A program made the translations under genes and the position numbers. Positions 5,759 through 28,412 of a stretch of 64,000 nucleotides of DNA are shown one piece after another. The stretch is from the IMG/VR virus record IMGVR_UViG_3300027976_000033; one strand, 5' to 3'. The DNA is from a virus. A model generated the notes under the pieces. The model did no database searches. It was not told the DNA's origin and saw only the letters and a program-made list of their open reading frames with translations. Position 1 is the first letter of the stretch. Every line of letters starts with the position of its first letter.

Positions 5759-6211
5759 ATGATTATGAATGACAGTATCGAAGATCAAATTGAAATGCTT
5801 AAGGTAATTAAAGAAAATTATCAAAAGCAATCTCAGGAACTTTTGAAAAAGACCATTAATGAATATATGGCTCGACATCCACAGTTGGCCTGTATCGTGT
5901 GGACTCAATACACCCCATACTCTAATGATGGTGAAGAATGTACTTTCCGGATTGGTGGGCCAGAATATTATAATCTTATCGATGGTGTAGAATTTGATCT
6001 TGATTCAGAAGATGTTGCTTCTTTTTCTTATGGTGAAGATGGTGAAACATGTGAGAATATTGGATATAAACATCCAGATAATGAAAAACATAAACCATTT
6101 ACACGAATGATACATGATAATTCTGAAATTCTACAACACATTTTTGATAATCATGTTATTGTTACTATAACAAGAGACGAAATCGTCGACGACGAATATG
6201 AGCACGAATGA
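5759..6211 (+). CDS. hypothetical acidic protein
   Basis: ORF, tightly packed with neighbours. Confidence 0.5.
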   Translation: MIMNDSIEDQIEMLKVIKENYQKQSQELLKKTINEYMARHPQLACIVWTQYTPYSNDGEECTFRIGGPEYYNLIDGVEFDLDSEDVASFSYGEDGETCENIGYKHPDNEKHKPFTRMIHDNSEILQHIFDNHVIVTITRDEIVDDEYEHE

Positions 6212-6600
6212 TGTGGTCATTTAAAAAGAAAAATATGTTTCATGGACACGATCTCAATAAGTGGAATTATCTTGGATCGTCTGAAATAAACTTTACAGAT
6301 AATGGTATTATTACTAGACAATCTTACATTTATTATTTTGTTCATAATAAGACAGACAAAAGGTCATATCATTGCTCAAACAAATATATGAAGATGCATC
6401 AGTTTATTAGTCATTACAGTGAATTGTGGAAAATTGGTGAGACTAGTTTATTTGAAATAATTCTAGATAAGCCATCGTCATATTGTATCAAACTCGCCGC
6501 AGACGCCGGATATAAATTTGATTATGGTAATACTTGTTGGATAAGATTTCTTGCTCCGACAAAAACTACTGATAATGTAATAAAAGTGGATTTCAAATGA
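6208..6600 (+). CDS. hypothetical protein
   Basis: ORF with overlapping stop/start. Confidence 0.5.
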   Translation: MMWSFKKKNMFHGHDLNKWNYLGSSEINFTDNGIITRQSYIYYFVHNKTDKRSYHCSNKYMKMHQFISHYSELWKIGETSLFEIILDKPSSYCIKLAADAGYKFDYGNTCWIRFLAPTKTTDNVIKVDFK

Positions 6601-21060: not shown

Positions 21061-21690
21061 ATGAGCATTGAAAATATTATATTAAGTAGTTTGTTATATA
21101 ATGAAGATTACGTCAGAAAGACGATAGCATTTTTAAAGCCAGAATATTTTCATAACGATGCTGATAAAGTTCTTTATAAATTAATAGAACACTATTTCCA
21201 GAAGTACAATGCCTCTCCAACAAAGGAAGCATTGCTTCTGGACATAGATAAAGTATCTTTACCGGAACACGTTTTTAAAGAGTGTGTCGAAAAGACCAAG
21301 ACTTTAGAATATACCGAACAACAGATGGTTTGGCTTACAGATACTACAGAGAAATTCTGTCAAGACAAAGCTCTCTACAATGCGATCATGGATTCAATCA
21401 AAATTATCGATGACGATGATGACAAAAATCCATTATCTAAGGGTTCTATTCCACAAATTCTGAGTGACGCTTTAGCAGTATCGTTTGATACTGATATCGG
21501 TCATGATTATTTAGAAAATTCTGAAGAGAGATTCGAGTATTATCATTTAGCTGAAGCGAAAATACCATTCGACATTGAGCATTTTAATAATATCACTAAG
21601 GGTGGTGTTTCTAGAAAAACACTTACAATCATACTTGCTGGTTGTGTTCATCCATCAACAAAAATTAAAGTGCGAATTAGAAAAGTGTAA
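21061..21690 (+). CDS. 41: replicative helicase gp41, fragment 1: N-extein (21061-21642) plus 15-aa split-intein N half
   Basis: DnaB/gp41 N-terminal domain; ends ...KTLTIILAG|CVHPSTKIKVRIRKV* inside the Walker A loop (T4 LLAG-VNVGKS). Confidence 0.85.
   Translation: MSIENIILSSLLYNEDYVRKTIAFLKPEYFHNDADKVLYKLIEHYFQKYNASPTKEALLLDIDKVSLPEHVFKECVEKTKTLEYTEQQMVWLTDTTEKFCQDKALYNAIMDSIKIIDDDDDKNPLSKGSIPQILSDALAVSFDTDIGHDYLENSEERFEYYHLAEAKIPFDIEHFNNITKGGVSRKTLTIILAGCVHPSTKIKVRIRKV
21643..21687 (+). other. atypical split-intein N half (IntN, 15 aa)
   Basis: Cys-initiated 15-residue peptide between the extein and an in-frame stop; complemented by a 128-aa IntC downstream. Confidence 0.65.
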
Positions 21691-22309
21691 ATCCGCGCTG
21701 GTATCCAATATCAATATACGATTGCAACAAATCAGGCTTTATTCTAGTTCTATGTTTTCCATTAGTTACACATATGAAGCCAGTAAGAGCTCTGCCGCCC
21801 TTAGCACAAATAATTTTTTTTACATCTGGATCGAAAAAGGCTCCTATTTTATTTTCTCTTTGTGTTTTAGAGCCAGCAGTTCCACCCTTTGAACACATGT
21901 TTTTTCTAAAGACTGGATCGAAAGTTCCTACTTTATTTTTGGATTGTGTCACCGCCGCCTTTCTGGCGCTAGCTCTGATTGATTCTTTATTATTTTTATA
22001 TTTATCAGAATGAAATCCGATTTTGTTTTTATGACAGAACTTACCAGTGATAATTCGCTGTTTAGTTGAAAGCTTCGCACCCAACATGTGCATAGATCTT
22101 AAATCATTTGGATTTTTATATATTTTCCACAATAAGAAATGAGCAATTATGTGTTCTCTAATATTTAGATATGTTAAATTTTCTTGTAAATCGCCGCCGC
22201 CCATGTGTTTTGGAATTATGTGATGAGCATGTAATCCGCTGGCGTAGCCATATTTTTCTTTTAATGATTTTCTATTTTCACACAATGATGAATAGATTAT
22301 ATCATACAT
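21677..22309 (-). CDS. HNH homing endonuclease (free-standing, opposite strand, between the split-intein halves)
   Basis: GLHAHHIIPKHMGGGD ... NLTYLNIREHIIAH HNH motif. Confidence 0.75.
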   Translation of the reverse strand: MYDIIYSSLCENRKSLKEKYGYASGLHAHHIIPKHMGGGDLQENLTYLNIREHIIAHFLLWKIYKNPNDLRSMHMLGAKLSTKQRIITGKFCHKNKIGFHSDKYKNNKESIRASARKAAVTQSKNKVGTFDPVFRKNMCSKGGTAGSKTQRENKIGAFFDPDVKKIICAKGGRALTGFICVTNGKHRTRIKPDLLQSYIDIGYQRGFTLF

Positions 22310-22323
22310 GTTTTAATCTTTCG

Positions 22324-22331
22324 TATAAATA
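22324..22331 (+). promoter_or_regulatory. T4-type late promoter octamer TATAAATA upstream of gp41 fragment 2
   Basis: exact TATAAATA 46 nt upstream of ATG 22377. Confidence 0.4.
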
Positions 22332-22376
22332 TTATGCCAGTGCCGGCTAGTAATATTTATTATTTTGGAGTTTTTA

Positions 22377-22760
22377 ATGAATAATTGGGTAGAAAAAGAA
22401 ATAGAAATAGGTGCCGTAGATGACTTGCTTAAAGAGGGTTATGAAGTAGAGGTATATTCTCCAGATGGTTGGGTTGGCATTAATTTTTTTGTTGATAAGG
22501 GTTCATATGAAGAATATATCATTACAACCGCAAATGGATTAGAAGTCAAATGTAACGCGGATCATTTATTTAAGTCTGTTGATGATGAATGGATTACTGC
22601 ACAAGAGTTAGAATATATGCAAGATCCTGTAGAATTAGTAACGATACATGGACCATCATTAGCATTTACCATTAAGACAGATAATATAATTCCAATTGTA
22701 GACATAAATGTTAATCATAAAAATAAGCGATATTATACAAATGGTATAGAATCACACAAT
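22377..22760 (+). other. atypical split-intein C half (IntC, 128 aa, contains block B)
   Basis: contains EVKCNADHLF (block B) and terminal GIESHN followed by +1 Thr. Confidence 0.65.
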
Positions 22761-23558
22761 ACTGGCGCGGGCAAAAGTTTGGCAATGTGCCACATGGCAG
22801 CTGGCAATCTCATGGATAATAAGAGTGTCCTATATATCACGCTCGAAATGGCTGAAGAAAAGATCGCAGAAAGAATTGATGCTAATCTTCTAAATATTAC
22901 CATGGACGATTTGGATAAAACTCCAAAAGCCTACTACGATAAAATGATTGCTAAGCTAAAGTCCAGAACTATGGGCAAGCTTATCATTAAAGAATATCCA
23001 ACTTCAACAGCCCATGCAAATCACTTTCGTCATCTTCTTAATGAATTAAAAATTAAGAAGAATTTTATACCAGACATCATCTATATCGATTACATCAATC
23101 TATGCGGATCAGTCAGAATTAAGGCCGGTGCTAATGCTAACTCGTACACGATGATTAAGTCGATTGCCGAAGAACTTCGTGGACTTGCCGTTGAACACAA
23201 CGTTCCTATCATTAGTGCTACACAGGTTACTCGAGCTGGATATGGTTCAAGCGATATTGAAATTACCGATACATCTGAATGTATCTTCCAGGATGAAATG
23301 ATTGAACTGCGTGATGGTAGTTCTAAAATGATTAAAGATATTGTAGTTGGAGATCAAATTATATCTAATGATCAATATAAAACGGTTCATATGGTTCATC
23401 ATTCGAAACTCAAAGACTGTTATAAGATAAAAACATCAGCTGGCAAAGAAATAATTGTAAGCAAAGATCATGTATTTCCAACAAAGCGTGGCAGAATATC
23501 AATCGAAACTGGTTTGAGTGTTGGTGATAATCTTAATAGTAGGAACCGTGATGAGTAA
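22377..23558 (+). CDS. 41: gp41 fragment 2: 128-aa IntC (22377-22760) plus central extein (22761-23279) plus IntN of second split intein (23280-23555)
   Basis: ...NGIESHN|TGAGKSLAMCHMA completes the Walker A motif; DnaB RecA-like core; ends ...DTSE|CIFQDEM...NRDE*. Confidence 0.85.
   Translation: MNNWVEKEIEIGAVDDLLKEGYEVEVYSPDGWVGINFFVDKGSYEEYIITTANGLEVKCNADHLFKSVDDEWITAQELEYMQDPVELVTIHGPSLAFTIKTDNIIPIVDINVNHKNKRYYTNGIESHNTGAGKSLAMCHMAAGNLMDNKSVLYITLEMAEEKIAERIDANLLNITMDDLDKTPKAYYDKMIAKLKSRTMGKLIIKEYPTSTAHANHFRHLLNELKIKKNFIPDIIYIDYINLCGSVRIKAGANANSYTMIKSIAEELRGLAVEHNVPIISATQVTRAGYGSSDIEITDTSECIFQDEMIELRDGSSKMIKDIVVGDQIISNDQYKTVHMVHHSKLKDCYKIKTSAGKEIIVSKDHVFPTKRGRISIETGLSVGDNLNSRNRDE
23280..23555 (+). 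other. split-intein N half (IntN, 92 aa), gp41-1-like
   Basis: CIFQDEMIELRDGS ... KDHVFPT (block B) ... stop; same pattern as described gp41-type split IntN. Confidence 0.8.
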
Positions 23559-23817
23559 TATTTATTTAGCATGCTTAGCTAAAGCAGAGTACTTGATGGA
23601 AAATGGTTATCCAGTTGGTAAGATTGATTTGGCACAATTGACCGATCTTCTTGTTAAATTGGAAAATGAGAAAATAGAAAAGCAAACACTCTCAGATGCT
23701 GTTATAGATTATAATGATACTATTGTCGAAATCATAGAGCTTGGAGAACTGGAAACAGTCGATCTTTCTGTGTCTGGTGATAATCTTTTCTATTGTAATG
23801 ACATATTAACAAAGAAT
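23551..23817 (+). other. split-intein C half (IntC; start uncertain, 89 aa from first ATG)
   Basis: blocks F/G VDLSVSGDNLFYCNDILTKN then +1 Ser. Confidence 0.6.
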
Positions 23818-24102
23818 AGTTTTGGACTTCCCGCCACTGCAGATTTAATGTTTGCTCTAGTTACATCTGAAGAGATGGAAAAATTAAATCAAGTTATGGT
23901 GAAGCAACTTAAAAACAGATATTCAGACATATCAAAGGATAGGAGATTTTTTGTTGGACTAGATAAGAGTAGAATGAAATTTTATGATCTAGAAGATAGT
24001 GCACAACGAGTTTTAAATGACGATGTTGCTATAATGGATCAAACGCCGACTGGTAAAAGAATTAATGATGAACTTAGAGATAAAATGAAAGATTTTAAAT
24101 GA
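23551..24102 (+). CDS. 41: gp41 fragment 3: IntC (23551-23817) plus C-extein (23818-24102)
   Basis: ATG overlaps the fragment-2 stop (ATGAGTAA); ...VDLSVSGDNLFYCNDILTKN|SFGLPATADLMFAL continues T4 gp41 ...SAGLPATADFMLAV. Confidence 0.8.
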   Translation: MSNIYLACLAKAEYLMENGYPVGKIDLAQLTDLLVKLENEKIEKQTLSDAVIDYNDTIVEIIELGELETVDLSVSGDNLFYCNDILTKNSFGLPATADLMFALVTSEEMEKLNQVMVKQLKNRYSDISKDRRFFVGLDKSRMKFYDLEDSAQRVLNDDVAIMDQTPTGKRINDELRDKMKDFK

Positions 24103-26005: not shown

Positions 26006-26559
26006 AAACTTTAATATTCACATATGGTAGATTTAATCCACCAACACTCGGTCATGAACTAGTATTCAATTTGATGTGCAAGACACGAATGAAATATAAA
26101 AATGCAGAAACTATGGTTGTACTAAGCCATTCTAATGATAAGAATAAAAACCCGTTGGATATAGACTTTAAATTCAACATATTGTCTGAATCATATCCGA
26201 CTATGAATTTCGTTAAAGCATCGTCACATCATCCATCGTTTATTCAACATCTAACACTGGCTTCACCAAATTATGACAAATTAATTTTTGTGTGTGGTGA
26301 AGATCGTGTTAAAGAATATAAGCGATTATTGAATAACTACAACCATCTCGATTTTAATTTCAAAGAAATAGAAGTGATTTCTGTCGGAAAAAGAGATGAA
26401 AGCGACGATGTTTCTGGAATTAGTGGTTCTAAAATGAGACAGTTTGTTAAAGATAGTGATAAAGAATCATTTAAGCTTAATTGTCCATTAGCATTTAGTG
26501 AAGGCTTTAAAAATGTTACATACAATTATTTGAGAGTAAAGGAGAAAGATGATGAGTAA
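26002..26559 (+). CDS. cytidylyltransferase-family nucleotidyltransferase (NMN/NaMN adenylyltransferase or PPAT-like)
   Basis: FTYGRFNPPTLGHE (HxGH motif) and ISGSKMRQ (ISSTxxR-like). Confidence 0.55.
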   Translation: MKTLIFTYGRFNPPTLGHELVFNLMCKTRMKYKNAETMVVLSHSNDKNKNPLDIDFKFNILSESYPTMNFVKASSHHPSFIQHLTLASPNYDKLIFVCGEDRVKEYKRLLNNYNHLDFNFKEIEVISVGKRDESDDVSGISGSKMRQFVKDSDKESFKLNCPLAFSEGFKNVTYNYLRVKEKDDE

Positions 26560-26588
26560 CACTATAGAAAAATCAATCAATGAACGCA
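26544..26588 (+). repeat. 45-bp direct repeat copy A (copy B at 27370-27414, 1 mismatch)
   Basis: agaaagatgatgagtaacac[t/g]atagaaaaatcaatcaatgaacgc; copy A spans the 3' end of the NMNAT-like gene, copy B is internal to ORF 27160. Confidence 0.8.
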
Positions 26589-26610
26589 ACCGAGCAGAGC
26601 AGGCTAGCCA
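26589..26610 (+). repeat. 22-bp exact direct repeat accgagcagagcaggctagcca (second copy 26821-26842)
   Basis: exact match seen in sequence. Confidence 0.8.
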
Positions 26611-26842
26611 TAAACTAGCATATATCATGCAGCGCGAAGGCCTCCCAATGGACGCGCAGCTAATGACCGCTGTCGCGGCTGAGATTGAAGCATTCTGGAA
26701 TAAAATGGGAGCCAAGACCATGGAGCCCGATCAAACGCAAAGGAACCCCCCCAATGACCAATAACCCAATACCCTGCGCCGATGATGAGCGCAAGGCAAC
26801 CACCCAACAGATAATCAGCGACCGAGCAGAGCAGGCTAGCCA

Positions 26843-27163
26843 ATGACCTGCCACACATTCACAACATTCATCCAGCGCGGCGATGACGAACTGGAAGTCC
26901 GCGTCACCTATAGCGTCTCGCCATTTATCGCACAGACATATTGGCAACCAGCTGAAGGCGGCGACTGTGAAATCATCAATGCCGAGTTTGTCGGGATCGA
27001 TGTCGCTGGTCGGATCGCAGACTTCAATGATGCAGAATATGAAGCTCTGCAAATCGAGTGTGAAGAACGGGCAGGTAGCGACGAACAGGACGCCGCCGCT
27101 GATTATGCAGATTATAGATATGAACAACACCGTGACCAGCAAATGATGGAGAAATTAACATGA
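26843..27163 (+). CDS. hypothetical protein (GC-rich island)
   Basis: ORF in high-GC segment; stop overlaps next start. Confidence 0.45.
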   Translation: MTCHTFTTFIQRGDDELEVRVTYSVSPFIAQTYWQPAEGGDCEIINAEFVGIDVAGRIADFNDAEYEALQIECEERAGSDEQDAAADYADYRYEQHRDQQMMEKLT

Positions 27164-27597
27164 CCGATATACCACAGTGGGCTTATGATAGAGCGCGCGA
27201 ACTGCGCGGAGGTTTTGGTACTTTTCAAGACCACGACAGAACCTTCGCCCTCTACATAAGCGAGCATGAAGACCCGCCAGAAGACCCGCTGCTACAGCAG
27301 GCGCTGGATATCGCTGCGGATGTTTATCTTAAGGCAGGATATAACAGCGATTTCACTGATAAGATTAGTAGAAAGATGATGAGTAACACGATAGAAAAAT
27401 CAATCAATGAACGCGATCGCCAATTGGCTTTTAATGCGCTGAATGGTGCTTATGGCGATGGCTCGAATGGCTGCGCTGATCTGGCTTTGGCTATTGCACA
27501 GAACCGTATTTTTGGGATGACTTATGAAAAAGTTAAATCCAATGATAAAGCCTTAGAAGCCACCGTGAAAGAAGATATTGAGAGGAATATAGGATGA
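27160..27597 (+). CDS. hypothetical protein (GC-rich island)
   Basis: coupled ORF chain; contains the internal copy of the 45-bp repeat. Confidence 0.5.
   Translation: MTDIPQWAYDRARELRGGFGTFQDHDRTFALYISEHEDPPEDPLLQQALDIAADVYLKAGYNSDFTDKISRKMMSNTIEKSINERDRQLAFNALNGAYGDGSNGCADLALAIAQNRIFGMTYEKVKSNDKALEATVKEDIERNIG
27370..27414 (+). repeat. 45-bp direct repeat copy B
   Basis: see copy A. Confidence 0.8.
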
Positions 27598-28067
27598 TCA
27601 ATGAAACAATAATGGGTGATCCAGTGATGGCTGATACGATAGAGCCGACGCTATTCGAACGCATTGGCAAAGCTGAATGGGGTGCGACAAAAGCGCAGAC
27701 AGCGAAAGAACATGGAGCTTCCATGAAAAAATCAGTTGAGATTACCGCCGAATATTTCGAGCAGGATGGGCCGCAACAATTGAACGGCCTGTATATTGCT
27801 GGAACTGAAACAGTTATCTGTCACACTGGAACAAGCCCGAATAGTCCAGAGATAGCGGCGAAATTGACTGAACTGTGGAACGATCAGGACGCCACCCTAT
27901 CCCAGGCGGCTCAAACGCGGAAGGTGATTGAGGATTGTGTTGAGGCTTTGGAATACGCAAAAGAAGCAATCGAATTTGCTTATATGGTCTCACTAGAACA
28001 GCCCCGCGAGATAGAAATGACCCGCACAGCCATCACCGCCGCCAAAGCATATCTAGGAGAGAAGTGA
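27594..28067 (+). CDS. hypothetical protein (GC-rich island)
   Basis: coupled ORF. Confidence 0.5.
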   Translation: MINETIMGDPVMADTIEPTLFERIGKAEWGATKAQTAKEHGASMKKSVEITAEYFEQDGPQQLNGLYIAGTETVICHTGTSPNSPEIAAKLTELWNDQDATLSQAAQTRKVIEDCVEALEYAKEAIEFAYMVSLEQPREIEMTRTAITAAKAYLGEK

Positions 28068-28101
28068 TGGGAACACTGTTGTTAGGCGGTCTTTATATAA
28101 T

Positions 28102-28350
28102 TTGCTGTTTCTTTTTTATTGCCAGTCTGGGCGCAGTGATCGATCTATGGTGGGACCAATGACCGACCTAAGCAAACGCCTGAAAGCTGAGAGCGTCCCG
28201 GATCGGGAACTGGATGCGGATATTGCTTGCGCGCTCCATGAGGGCATCGGGCATGATGCCCCGCCAGACAATACGACTGCCCGGAATGGTAAATTCTGTC
28301 ACGGAAGCCAGCCCGGCAATTATGACGTTCATGTCTTAAGTGGATTGTAG
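28102..28350 (+). CDS. hypothetical protein (GC-rich island)
   Basis: ORF. Confidence 0.35.
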   Translation: MLFLFYCQSGRSDRSMVGPMTDLSKRLKAESVPDRELDADIACALHEGIGHDAPPDNTTARNGKFCHGSQPGNYDVHVLSGL

Positions 28351-28379
28351 ACGGAAATGCAGCCGTAATTATTTAAAAT

Positions 28380-28387
28380 TATAAATA
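28380..28387 (+). promoter_or_regulatory. T4-type late promoter octamer TATAAATA
   Basis: exact octamer about 235 nt upstream of the 760-aa ORF. Confidence 0.35.
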
Positions 28388-28393
28388 TATAGT

Positions 28394-28412
28394 GCAAGAA
28401 CAGTTCTTGCAT
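28394..28412. repeat. perfect 19-bp palindrome tgcaagaacagttcttgca
   Basis: seen in sequence. Confidence 0.7.

Follow-up and report, generated by a model that had tools for sequence, protein, structure and literature searches.

Split Intein Interrupting the gp41 Helicase Gene

The IMG/VR virus record IMGVR_UViG_3300027976_000033, analyzed here as a stretch of 64,000 nucleotides (nt; hereafter the window), carries a gene for the replicative helicase gp41 that is interrupted at two sites. The downstream interruption, here called intein 2, is very probably a genuine naturally split class-1 intein residing in the gp41 of an uncultured T4-like phage, and we infer its splicing from a set of catalytic residues conserved throughout its relatives. 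These relatives form a large and apparently undescribed intein family, whose C fragments bear a conserved N-terminal extension predicted to fold as a two-helix hairpin.

The gp41 coding sequence is spread over three open reading frames (ORFs), with a further split intein (intein 1) located upstream in the P-loop, in agreement with a sequence-only reading of the same DNA that had described an essential helicase gene in three pieces. As read from the window sequence, the middle ORF (ORF B) runs from a TTG at 22365 or an ATG at 22377 to 23558 and encodes ...DIEITDTSE/CIFQDEMIELRDGS...VSKDHVFPT...NSRNRDE before the stop; the slash marks, here and below, a boundary between extein and intein, and the end of ORF B, where extein 2 meets the N fragment of intein 2, can also be given as ...GSSDIEITDTSE/CIFQDEMIELRDGSSKMIKDIVVGDQIISNDQYKTVHMVHHSKLKDCYKIKTSAGKEIIVSKDHVFPTKRGRISIETGLSVGDNLNSRNRDE. 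This N fragment comprises 92 amino acids (aa; 23280–23555), begins with a Cys1 encoded at 23280 and terminates at the TAA in 23556–23558. The last ORF (ORF C) starts with an ATG at 23551–23553 in the +1 frame relative to ORF B, which gives an overlap of 8 nt between them (cgtgATGagTAA). The 92-aa half following DTSE, the ATG overlapping its stop and the lack of an endonuclease gene between the halves had all been proposed beforehand and are present in the sequence. An AGGA similar to a Shine–Dalgarno (SD) motif is found at 23541–23544, 6 nt 5' of the ATG of ORF C and within the coding end of the N fragment, and the starts of neighboring genes in the window are likewise preceded by AGGA or GGAG at 5–9 nt. 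From the start of ORF C, the C fragment extends over 89 aa through ...VDLSVSGDNLFYCNDILTKN (its end may also be written ...VSGDNLFYCNDILTKN), with the last nucleotide at 23817, followed by the extein SFGLPATADLMFAL..., so that the junction reads ...ILTKN/SFGLPATAD.

The insertion point of intein 2, DTSE/SFGLPATAD, lies in helicase motif H4 of gp41. Uninterrupted gp41 proteins of Stenotrophomonas phage DLP_6 and Synechococcus phage S-CRM01 exhibit the sequences TDTSE-SFGLPATAD and ILAG-TGVGKS, and the C half of intein 2 indeed runs straight into the continuation of gp41, as the earlier reading had stated. The in silico removal of both inteins produced a gp41 of 461 aa with 60% identity to the DLP_6 protein over 429 aa. 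Because this alignment is free of gaps at both intein junctions, the removal of the elements restores a colinear host protein. Matches to DLP_6 and S-CRM01 in tblastn searches that seemed to run into the intein were rejected as candidates, being in reality an intact gp41 followed by unrelated ORFs. Near-identical DNA of the locus found no match among GenBank phages.

Intein Identity and Conserved Catalytic Residues

The fused halves of intein 2 matched the structure of the gp41-1 intein (PDB 6qaz) with E = 8e-18, a similarity well beyond what chance would give. This match came in two pieces (query residues 15–83 and 150–181), and the extension located in between stayed unmatched. The N half taken separately was 43% identical to a gp41-1 allele over 67 aa (E = 6e-17). 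In an alignment of 24 paired inteins, the residues C1, S65/H68, D167, N185, and S186 were invariant. The class-1 nucleophile is the Cys encoded at 23280, straight after DTSE (24/24 paired sequences), and the S-x-x-H motif of block B corresponds to VSKDH in the window, aligned to CSEEH of gp41-1. Blocks F and G close the C fragment as ETVDLSVSGDNLFYCNDILTKN/S, with the block-F Asp, the terminal Asn, and the Ser+1 in place. The proposal that the element is a genuine split intein is thereby sustained at Cys1, at block B, at block F, and on both sides of the C-terminal junction.

The arrangement of the halves also follows that of naturally split inteins. They are encoded in separate ORFs, the TAA at 23556–23558 and the ATG at 23551 lying in different frames, and the split falls at the canonical position, that is, between blocks B and F at the insertion site of the endonuclease, with the N fragment aligned to residues 17–85 and the C-terminal HINT part (HINT-C) to residues 97–128 of gp41-1.

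A Conserved Extension of the C Fragment

The C fragment of intein 2 is unusually long. With 89 aa in the window, 86–105 aa across the family in the later scan and up to 113 aa in an earlier scan under another start-codon rule, it exceeds the ~35–50 aa reported for the C fragments of canonically split inteins (PMC13014065), and the surplus corresponds to the conserved hairpin, which brings the fragment to about twice the usual length. This extension, which comprises the first ~52 residues, was observed in every readable C-intein ORF, including those of loci with an intact endonuclease gene. Little or no variation is seen at its residues C8, A12, L34, K36, E38, E40, K41, K44, and D49. The ratio of nonsynonymous to synonymous substitution rates (dN/dS; Nei–Gojobori, 41 distinct sequences) was 0.14 in the extension, 0.15 in the HINT part, and 0.21 in the extein; these are rough figures, as each region draws on a different subset of unsaturated pairs. 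The sequence-only reading had suggested that the long C half might contain a linker or a degraded endonuclease remnant. This suggestion was not supported, given the family-wide conservation of the extension, the purifying selection acting on it, and its coexistence with an intact endonuclease gene.

The first predicted helix covers about residues 1–17 (23551–23601) and the second about residues 27–50 (23629–23700). Both were recovered in two AlphaFold2 runs based on different alignments, with block means of the predicted local distance difference test (pLDDT) of 81–94; the combined unpaired alignment of N and C halves held 12 N rows and 4 C rows. A Foldseek search of the first AlphaFold2 model against the PDB gave no significant match. 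Profile comparisons with Pfam, PHROG, and PDB likewise gave no counterpart of the extension, save for its last dozen residues, which resemble the segment preceding block F in the Ssp DnaB mini-intein. When the extension profile was searched against 1.84 billion representative proteins, 17 matches were obtained, of which 15 were N-terminal and in most cases C-intein ORFs of 175–214 aa, the other two being a spurious repeat protein and a 111-aa fragment matched at residues 41–87. The extension thus appears restricted to the N-terminus of the C-intein ORFs of this family, and no other protein context was found for it among these matches.

The fragments also differ in charge. The extension has a mean net charge of −6.0 and is always negative (−3 to −10), HINT-C averages −4.5, and the N fragment +3.8. 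Taken together, these features do not give the extension the look of decayed sequence; it could be a functional accessory that raises the affinity of the fragments or the specificity of their pairing, or the solubility of the C fragment, a proposal to which we assign somewhat less than an even chance. More doubtful is the further idea that the hairpin represents an unrecognized add-on of split inteins, acting either as a module for partner recognition and affinity or as a compensator or regulator of C-terminal cleavage in the absence of the canonical histidines.

Endonuclease Loss within the Family

ORF C gave more than 2500 database matches, and the top 120 were all stand-alone ORFs of 172–208 aa. 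Wherever the databases examined give a name to the C-terminal gp41 fragments of the family, this name is "hypothetical protein". A scan of IMG/VR with an alignment of the C-intein only yielded 80 loci, and both halves were located in 58 loci, the window and other fetched loci included. The spacing between the stop of the N-intein and the start of the C-intein amounts to ~1.0–1.17 kb in most loci. This gap of about 1 kb contains a free-standing endonuclease gene, the 3' end of which overlaps the start of the C-intein. In locus L005, for instance, two ORFs lie in the gap, one of 77 aa and one of 207 aa, the latter with the motif ...VVEYNGVFWHP..., and in L146 an ORF of 354 aa takes this position. 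The endonuclease ORFs found in such gaps match PHROGs of homing endonucleases, and by their motifs they resemble the Vsr-like family that has been described along with fractured genes.

The endonuclease gene is missing in about 12 lineages, the window among them, with gaps of −11 to +170 nt. Deletion accounts for the endonuclease-less state: L133 differs from L138 by a clean deletion of 1024 nt, L147 from L146 by 1097 nt, and L089, L133, and L153 retain a coding remnant of the endonuclease C-terminus (...VWSDDNL...). Compaction has gone furthest in the window, where the stop and start codons overlap.

The family was also found in diverged helicase hosts, with its extension. The loci L160, L162, L164, and L165 (~5900–6500) encode distant DnaB-like helicases with the C-extein S[VI]GLAATADV...MKNRYG and the same type of intein. 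Their extension is diverged and devoid of the conserved Cys, and by eye its sequence still seems two-helix-like.

No description of the insertion site, of Lys and Asn at the usual His positions, or of the conserved hairpin was found in the literature searched, which did not include the supplement of Dassa et al. (2009), and the signature peptides of the intein 2 family occur in none of the paper texts searched. The gp41 split inteins as such, the endonuclease-bearing fractured genes, and one endonuclease-less derivative have been known since 2009.

Alternative Explanations

Several points weigh against our interpretation of intein 2 as a split intein with translationally coupled halves and an accessory hairpin. 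The histidines usually involved in Asn cyclization are absent from the whole family, the penultimate position being taken by an invariant Lys (ILTKN) and block F reading GDN-LF, with Asn, compared with GNH-LF in gp41-1. The penultimate and block-F histidines are frequent rather than defining features of inteins, and splicing is known for inteins that lack the penultimate one; since both canonical histidines are missing here, the splicing chemistry may be slower or differently organized. The overall HINT assembly was not confident in either AlphaFold2 run (predicted template modeling scores of 0.37 and 0.31), and neither was the packing of the hairpin. The proposed coupling derives from the geometry of the overlap, where no distinctive RNA structure was predicted beyond shuffled controls (z = 0.2), and the role proposed for the extension derives purely from its conservation, charge, and context.

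Because both frames stay open through 23518–23558 and are offset from each other by +1, a single indel would join them, and the locus might thus represent a contiguous mini-intein of ~180 aa broken by a 1-nt sequencing or assembly error near 23550. Yet at least 7 contigs, which stem from independent runs and different assemblers (SRR5208770, SRR5468154, ERZ27247431, ERZ27247429, and JGI 3300007523), encode precisely the same ORF C protein, and ORF C is overlapped by 8 nt by the upstream gene in all five loci shown. The 24-nt junction AGGAACCGTGATGAGTAATATTTA is identical in those contigs as well as in the IMG/VR contigs L086 and L087, which represent a diverged strain and whose differences near the junction are synonymous in the N-intein frame. 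Moreover, none of the 58 loci in which both halves were located has them in one ORF, their spacers are many and varied, and no contiguous-intein architecture was found among the extension-profile matches in the 1.84 billion representatives. The frameshift error that the earlier reading had asked to be checked is contradicted by these observations, and we consider its probability negligible. Programmed +1 ribosomal frameshifting at the overlap, which would give a contiguous precursor besides or in place of the two fragments, deserves consideration on account of the AGGA located 5' of the stop codon. The prfB-type +1 frameshift site has an SD-like motif upstream of the stop codon, which the overlap loosely recalls. 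Here, however, the motif lies 11 nt from the stop, the P-site codon preceding the TAA is GAG, with no slippery codon, and no stimulatory RNA structure is predicted; in the relatives, spacers of +6 to +170 nt or endonuclease cassettes of 1 kb could not be bridged by a frameshift, all of which renders this explanation very improbable.

The missing histidines also leave room for the notion that the halves no longer splice, and either hold together a noncovalent gp41 complex of three pieces or belong to a decaying gene. Against it stand the invariance of Cys1, the block-B His, the block-F Asp, the terminal Asn, and Ser+1 among diverged members, the dN/dS of 0.15 that indicates purifying selection on the intein parts, the known ability of inteins without a penultimate His to splice, the essential nature of gp41 in T4-like phages, and the abundance of the family; we regard a loss of splicing as distinctly unlikely. 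As for the extension, the similarity of the last ~12 residues before block F to the linker of the Ssp DnaB mini-intein could point to a neutral leftover, be it a linker, an endonuclease remnant, or the 3' end of an invading cassette. This sits poorly with its nine invariant or nearly invariant residues, with a dN/dS as low as that of the catalytic part, with its unchanged presence in loci that retain the endonuclease gene intact as well as in diverged helicase hosts, and with the confident prediction of the hairpin as folded, so that a leftover is hardly to be expected. The consistent and strong acidity of the extension, and its conservation in this family while the closely related gp41-1-type inteins do without it, would also suit a role apart from splicing; once the reaction is over, for example, the heterodimer of excised intein halves, or the acidic hairpin, could mimic DNA or regulate the endonuclease, the helicase loader, or a host factor. 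This idea is purely speculative and improbable, as the extension exhibits neither homology to known domains nor a structural match.

Intein 1 and the Three-Piece Gene

The upstream element, intein 1 (21643–22760, 1118 nt), interrupts the P-loop, or Walker A loop, at ILAG/C...ESHN/TGAGKS, and the ESHN/TGAGKS junction restores this loop as in DLP_6 (ILAGTGVGKS). Intein 1 is contiguous in L008 and L114. The closest relatives of the window, L086 and L087, lack exactly the segment 21643–22760 and read ILAG-I-GAGKS; L086 is 97–99% identical on both sides of intein 1, and its +1 codon is ATT (Ile) compared with ACT (Thr) in the window. Given this absence from L086 and L087, the three-piece state is recent in the lineage of the window, with intein 2 the older element. 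Three-piece gp41 genes were also found in the lineages of L003/L088 and of L006/L124–128. Comparison of intein 1 with intein 2 revealed no sequence similarity (E = 5.2). As the two are unrelated in sequence and split at different topological positions, they are likely orthogonal, in line with the two orthogonal reactions that the earlier reading had envisaged. The features of the whole gene are compiled in table 1.

Elsewhere in the window, the region 26500–28400 forms an island richer in guanine and cytosine (0.43 vs. ~0.35 elsewhere) with several small ORFs of different amino acid composition. Two copies of the peptide MMSNTIEKSINER are present there, one opening the ORF at 26549–26764 and the other within the ORF at 27160–27597.

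Table 1. Coordinates of the exteins, intein fragments, and associated elements of the gp41 gene in the window
Feature	Coordinates	Strand	Support
gp41 extein 1 (N-terminal domain, 194 aa, ending with ...TIILAG in the Walker A loop)	21061..21642	+	Pfam DnaB N-terminal domain; colinear with DLP_6; 98.9% nt identity to L086 up to 21642
Intein 1 N fragment, 15 aa (CVHPSTKIKVRIRKV) and stop; atypical split near the N-terminus	21643..21690	+	
HNH-type homing endonuclease (210 aa) as a free-standing ORF separating the fragments of intein 1	21677..22309	-	PHROG 655 "homing endonuclease", E = 9e-20; weak Pfam HNH match
Intein 1 C fragment, 128 aa, ...YYTNGIESHN, then Thr+1	22377..22760	+	
gp41 extein 2 (173 aa, TGAGKS... 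to ...DIEITDTSE, RecA-like core)	22761..23279	+	Pfam DnaB_C, E = 1e-14; PHROG 19; colinear alignment
Intein 2 N fragment (92 aa, closed by TAA; block B VSKDH; conserved HH-K-K-C patch)	23280..23558	+	
SD-like AGGA	23541..23544	+	Read directly; unchanged in 7 other contigs
Intein 2 C fragment, N-terminal extension (residues 1–52, acidic, predicted two-helix hairpin)	23551..23706	+	
Intein 2 C fragment, HINT part (residues 53–89: ...DYNDTIVEIIELGELETVDLSVSGDNLFYCNDILTKN; blocks F and G, terminal Asn)	23707..23817	+	Aligns to gp41-1 residues 97–128 and to the Ssp DnaB mini-intein
gp41 extein 3 (94 aa, SFGLPATADLMFAL... to stop)	23818..24102	+	PHROG 19 DnaB-like helicase; colinear alignment

Proposed Mechanism and Significance

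In the scheme that we propose, ribosomes terminating on ORF B would re-initiate at the ATG at 23551, with the AGGA 6 nt 5' of it, and the two fragments would thus be made in roughly equal amounts. The N fragment, which is basic, and the C fragment, which is strongly acidic, would pair to form a folded HINT domain, and trans-splicing through the N–S shift at Cys1, the attack by Ser+1, and the cyclization of Asn89 would join extein 2 to extein 3. With intein 1 acting independently, full-length gp41 would be assembled from three polypeptides. The most speculative step is the one assigned to the acidic hairpin, which might strengthen or specify the pairing of the fragments or keep the C fragment soluble.

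The phage gp41 split inteins, such as gp41-1 and gp41-8, are among the fastest protein-ligation tools. The family of intein 2 offers new candidates for such tools, as it is abundant and distinct from, although related to, gp41-1, with another insertion site, unusual catalytic residues, and an extra conserved module. Its members co-occur with other split inteins in a single gene, and orthogonal pairs or triples are precisely what the assembly of proteins from multiple fragments needs. In addition, the life cycle of these elements is visible side by side, with loci in which the endonuclease is kept, partly deleted, or lost with compaction of the junction, and none in which the halves are re-fused. 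If the hairpin were indeed a recognition module, several related split inteins could occupy one helicase gene side by side and not react with each other's fragments. The chief interest of the family lies in the supply of orthogonal split inteins and in the question raised by the hairpin.

Comparison with Known Systems

The gp41-1 intein (PDB 6qaz) shares with intein 2 the gp41 host of T4-like phages, the class-1 assignment with Cys1 and Ser+1, the canonical split, homologous blocks F and G, and the combination of a basic N fragment with an acidic C fragment. The two differ in position, as the gp41-1 site is TRSGY/SSSDV (in locus L012, which is essentially the gp41-1 locus), whereas the intein 2 site TDTSE/SFGLPATAD lies 12 residues downstream. 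They also differ in the length of the C fragment, 37 aa in L012 compared with 89 aa in intein 2 owing to its two-helix N-terminal module, and in the penultimate residue, which is His in gp41-1 and Lys in intein 2, where block F moreover has Asn for His. Dassa et al. (2009) reported C fragments of 33–54 aa, and host proteins 89–100% identical with very similar inteins for gp41-1 to gp41-7 (PMC2677866). Intein 2 falls outside this allelic group of common site and high identity, being located 12 residues away and only 43% identical in the N half; on both of these grounds we consider it a related lineage at a different site rather than an allele of gp41-1.

Dassa et al. (2009) described fractured genes, in which the halves of a split intein are separated by the gene of a free-standing homing endonuclease, and step III of their model, illustrated by the locus gp41-7, has the endonuclease lost and the halves left adjacent (PMC2677866). 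Most relatives of intein 2 exhibit the full layout, with the N half, a short spacer, the free-standing Vsr-like endonuclease, and the C half. The window, in contrast, has no endonuclease between the halves and corresponds to the endonuclease-less derivative gp41-7, from which it differs in intein family, in insertion point, and in the compaction of its halves to a stop/start overlap of 8 nt.

Out of 50,697 GenBank phage records, only that of Shigella phage ESh36 (ON528746.1, Tequatrovirus, an unverified GenBank record) contained the intein 2 family. ESh36 has the same insertion site, MSDIAE/.../SAGLPATADFMLAV (C-extein SAGLPATADF), and the same intein family as the window, and its long C fragment bears the extension and ends in ILTKN. 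It has a single gp41 intein (L166, 455–3435), with an endonuclease ORF of 332 aa, annotated as "hypothetical protein", between the halves. For the halves themselves the record gives just the labels "DNA primase/helicase" and "hypothetical protein", and it names no intein.

The Ssp DnaB intein, known structurally as a mini-intein (PDB 1mi8), likewise resides in a helicase of the DnaB family. The C-terminal 48 aa of the mini-intein align to residues 45–92 of the C-fragment profile, and its segment preceding block F, EIEKLSQSDISWD, matches KIEKQTLSDAVIDYND. Its junction, RESG/SIEQD, would place the insertion point in the equivalent motif, within ~2 residues of the intein 2 site. Unlike intein 2, the Ssp DnaB intein is contiguous, natively has an in-frame endonuclease domain, exhibits the canonical histidines, and has nothing that corresponds to the first ~45 residues of the extension.

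Intein 1 is best likened to the atypically split inteins VidaL and AceL-TerL, which have N fragments of 16 and 25 aa, respectively (as cited in PMC13014065). As in these, its N fragment is very short (15 aa) and its C fragment (128 aa) holds nearly the whole HINT fold. The likeness is one of fragment sizes only, and intein 1 has an HNH endonuclease gene on the opposite strand between its halves.

Other gp41 genes combine the same types of elements within a short distance. In L172 (57–1331) and L173 (protein P0134), a single gp41 contains two endonuclease-less split inteins separated by a 12-residue extein. Their middle ORF, of 142 aa, opens with a C fragment of gp41-1 type, continues through the extein SNSDIEITDTSE, and closes with an N fragment of the intein 2 family, so that its product supplies the mature helicase with just 12 residues. 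An N fragment of gp41-1 type stands at the end of the ORF before it. Cross-reaction between two related split inteins this close together has to be avoided, which makes a role of the hairpin in specificity plausible. A further gp41 split-intein site, TQTTR/.../SGYGNSDV, was observed in L007 and L009, and the gp41-1 site is occupied in L008, L010, and L015. With insertion points a few residues apart, this short stretch of the helicase is a hotspot of split inteins.

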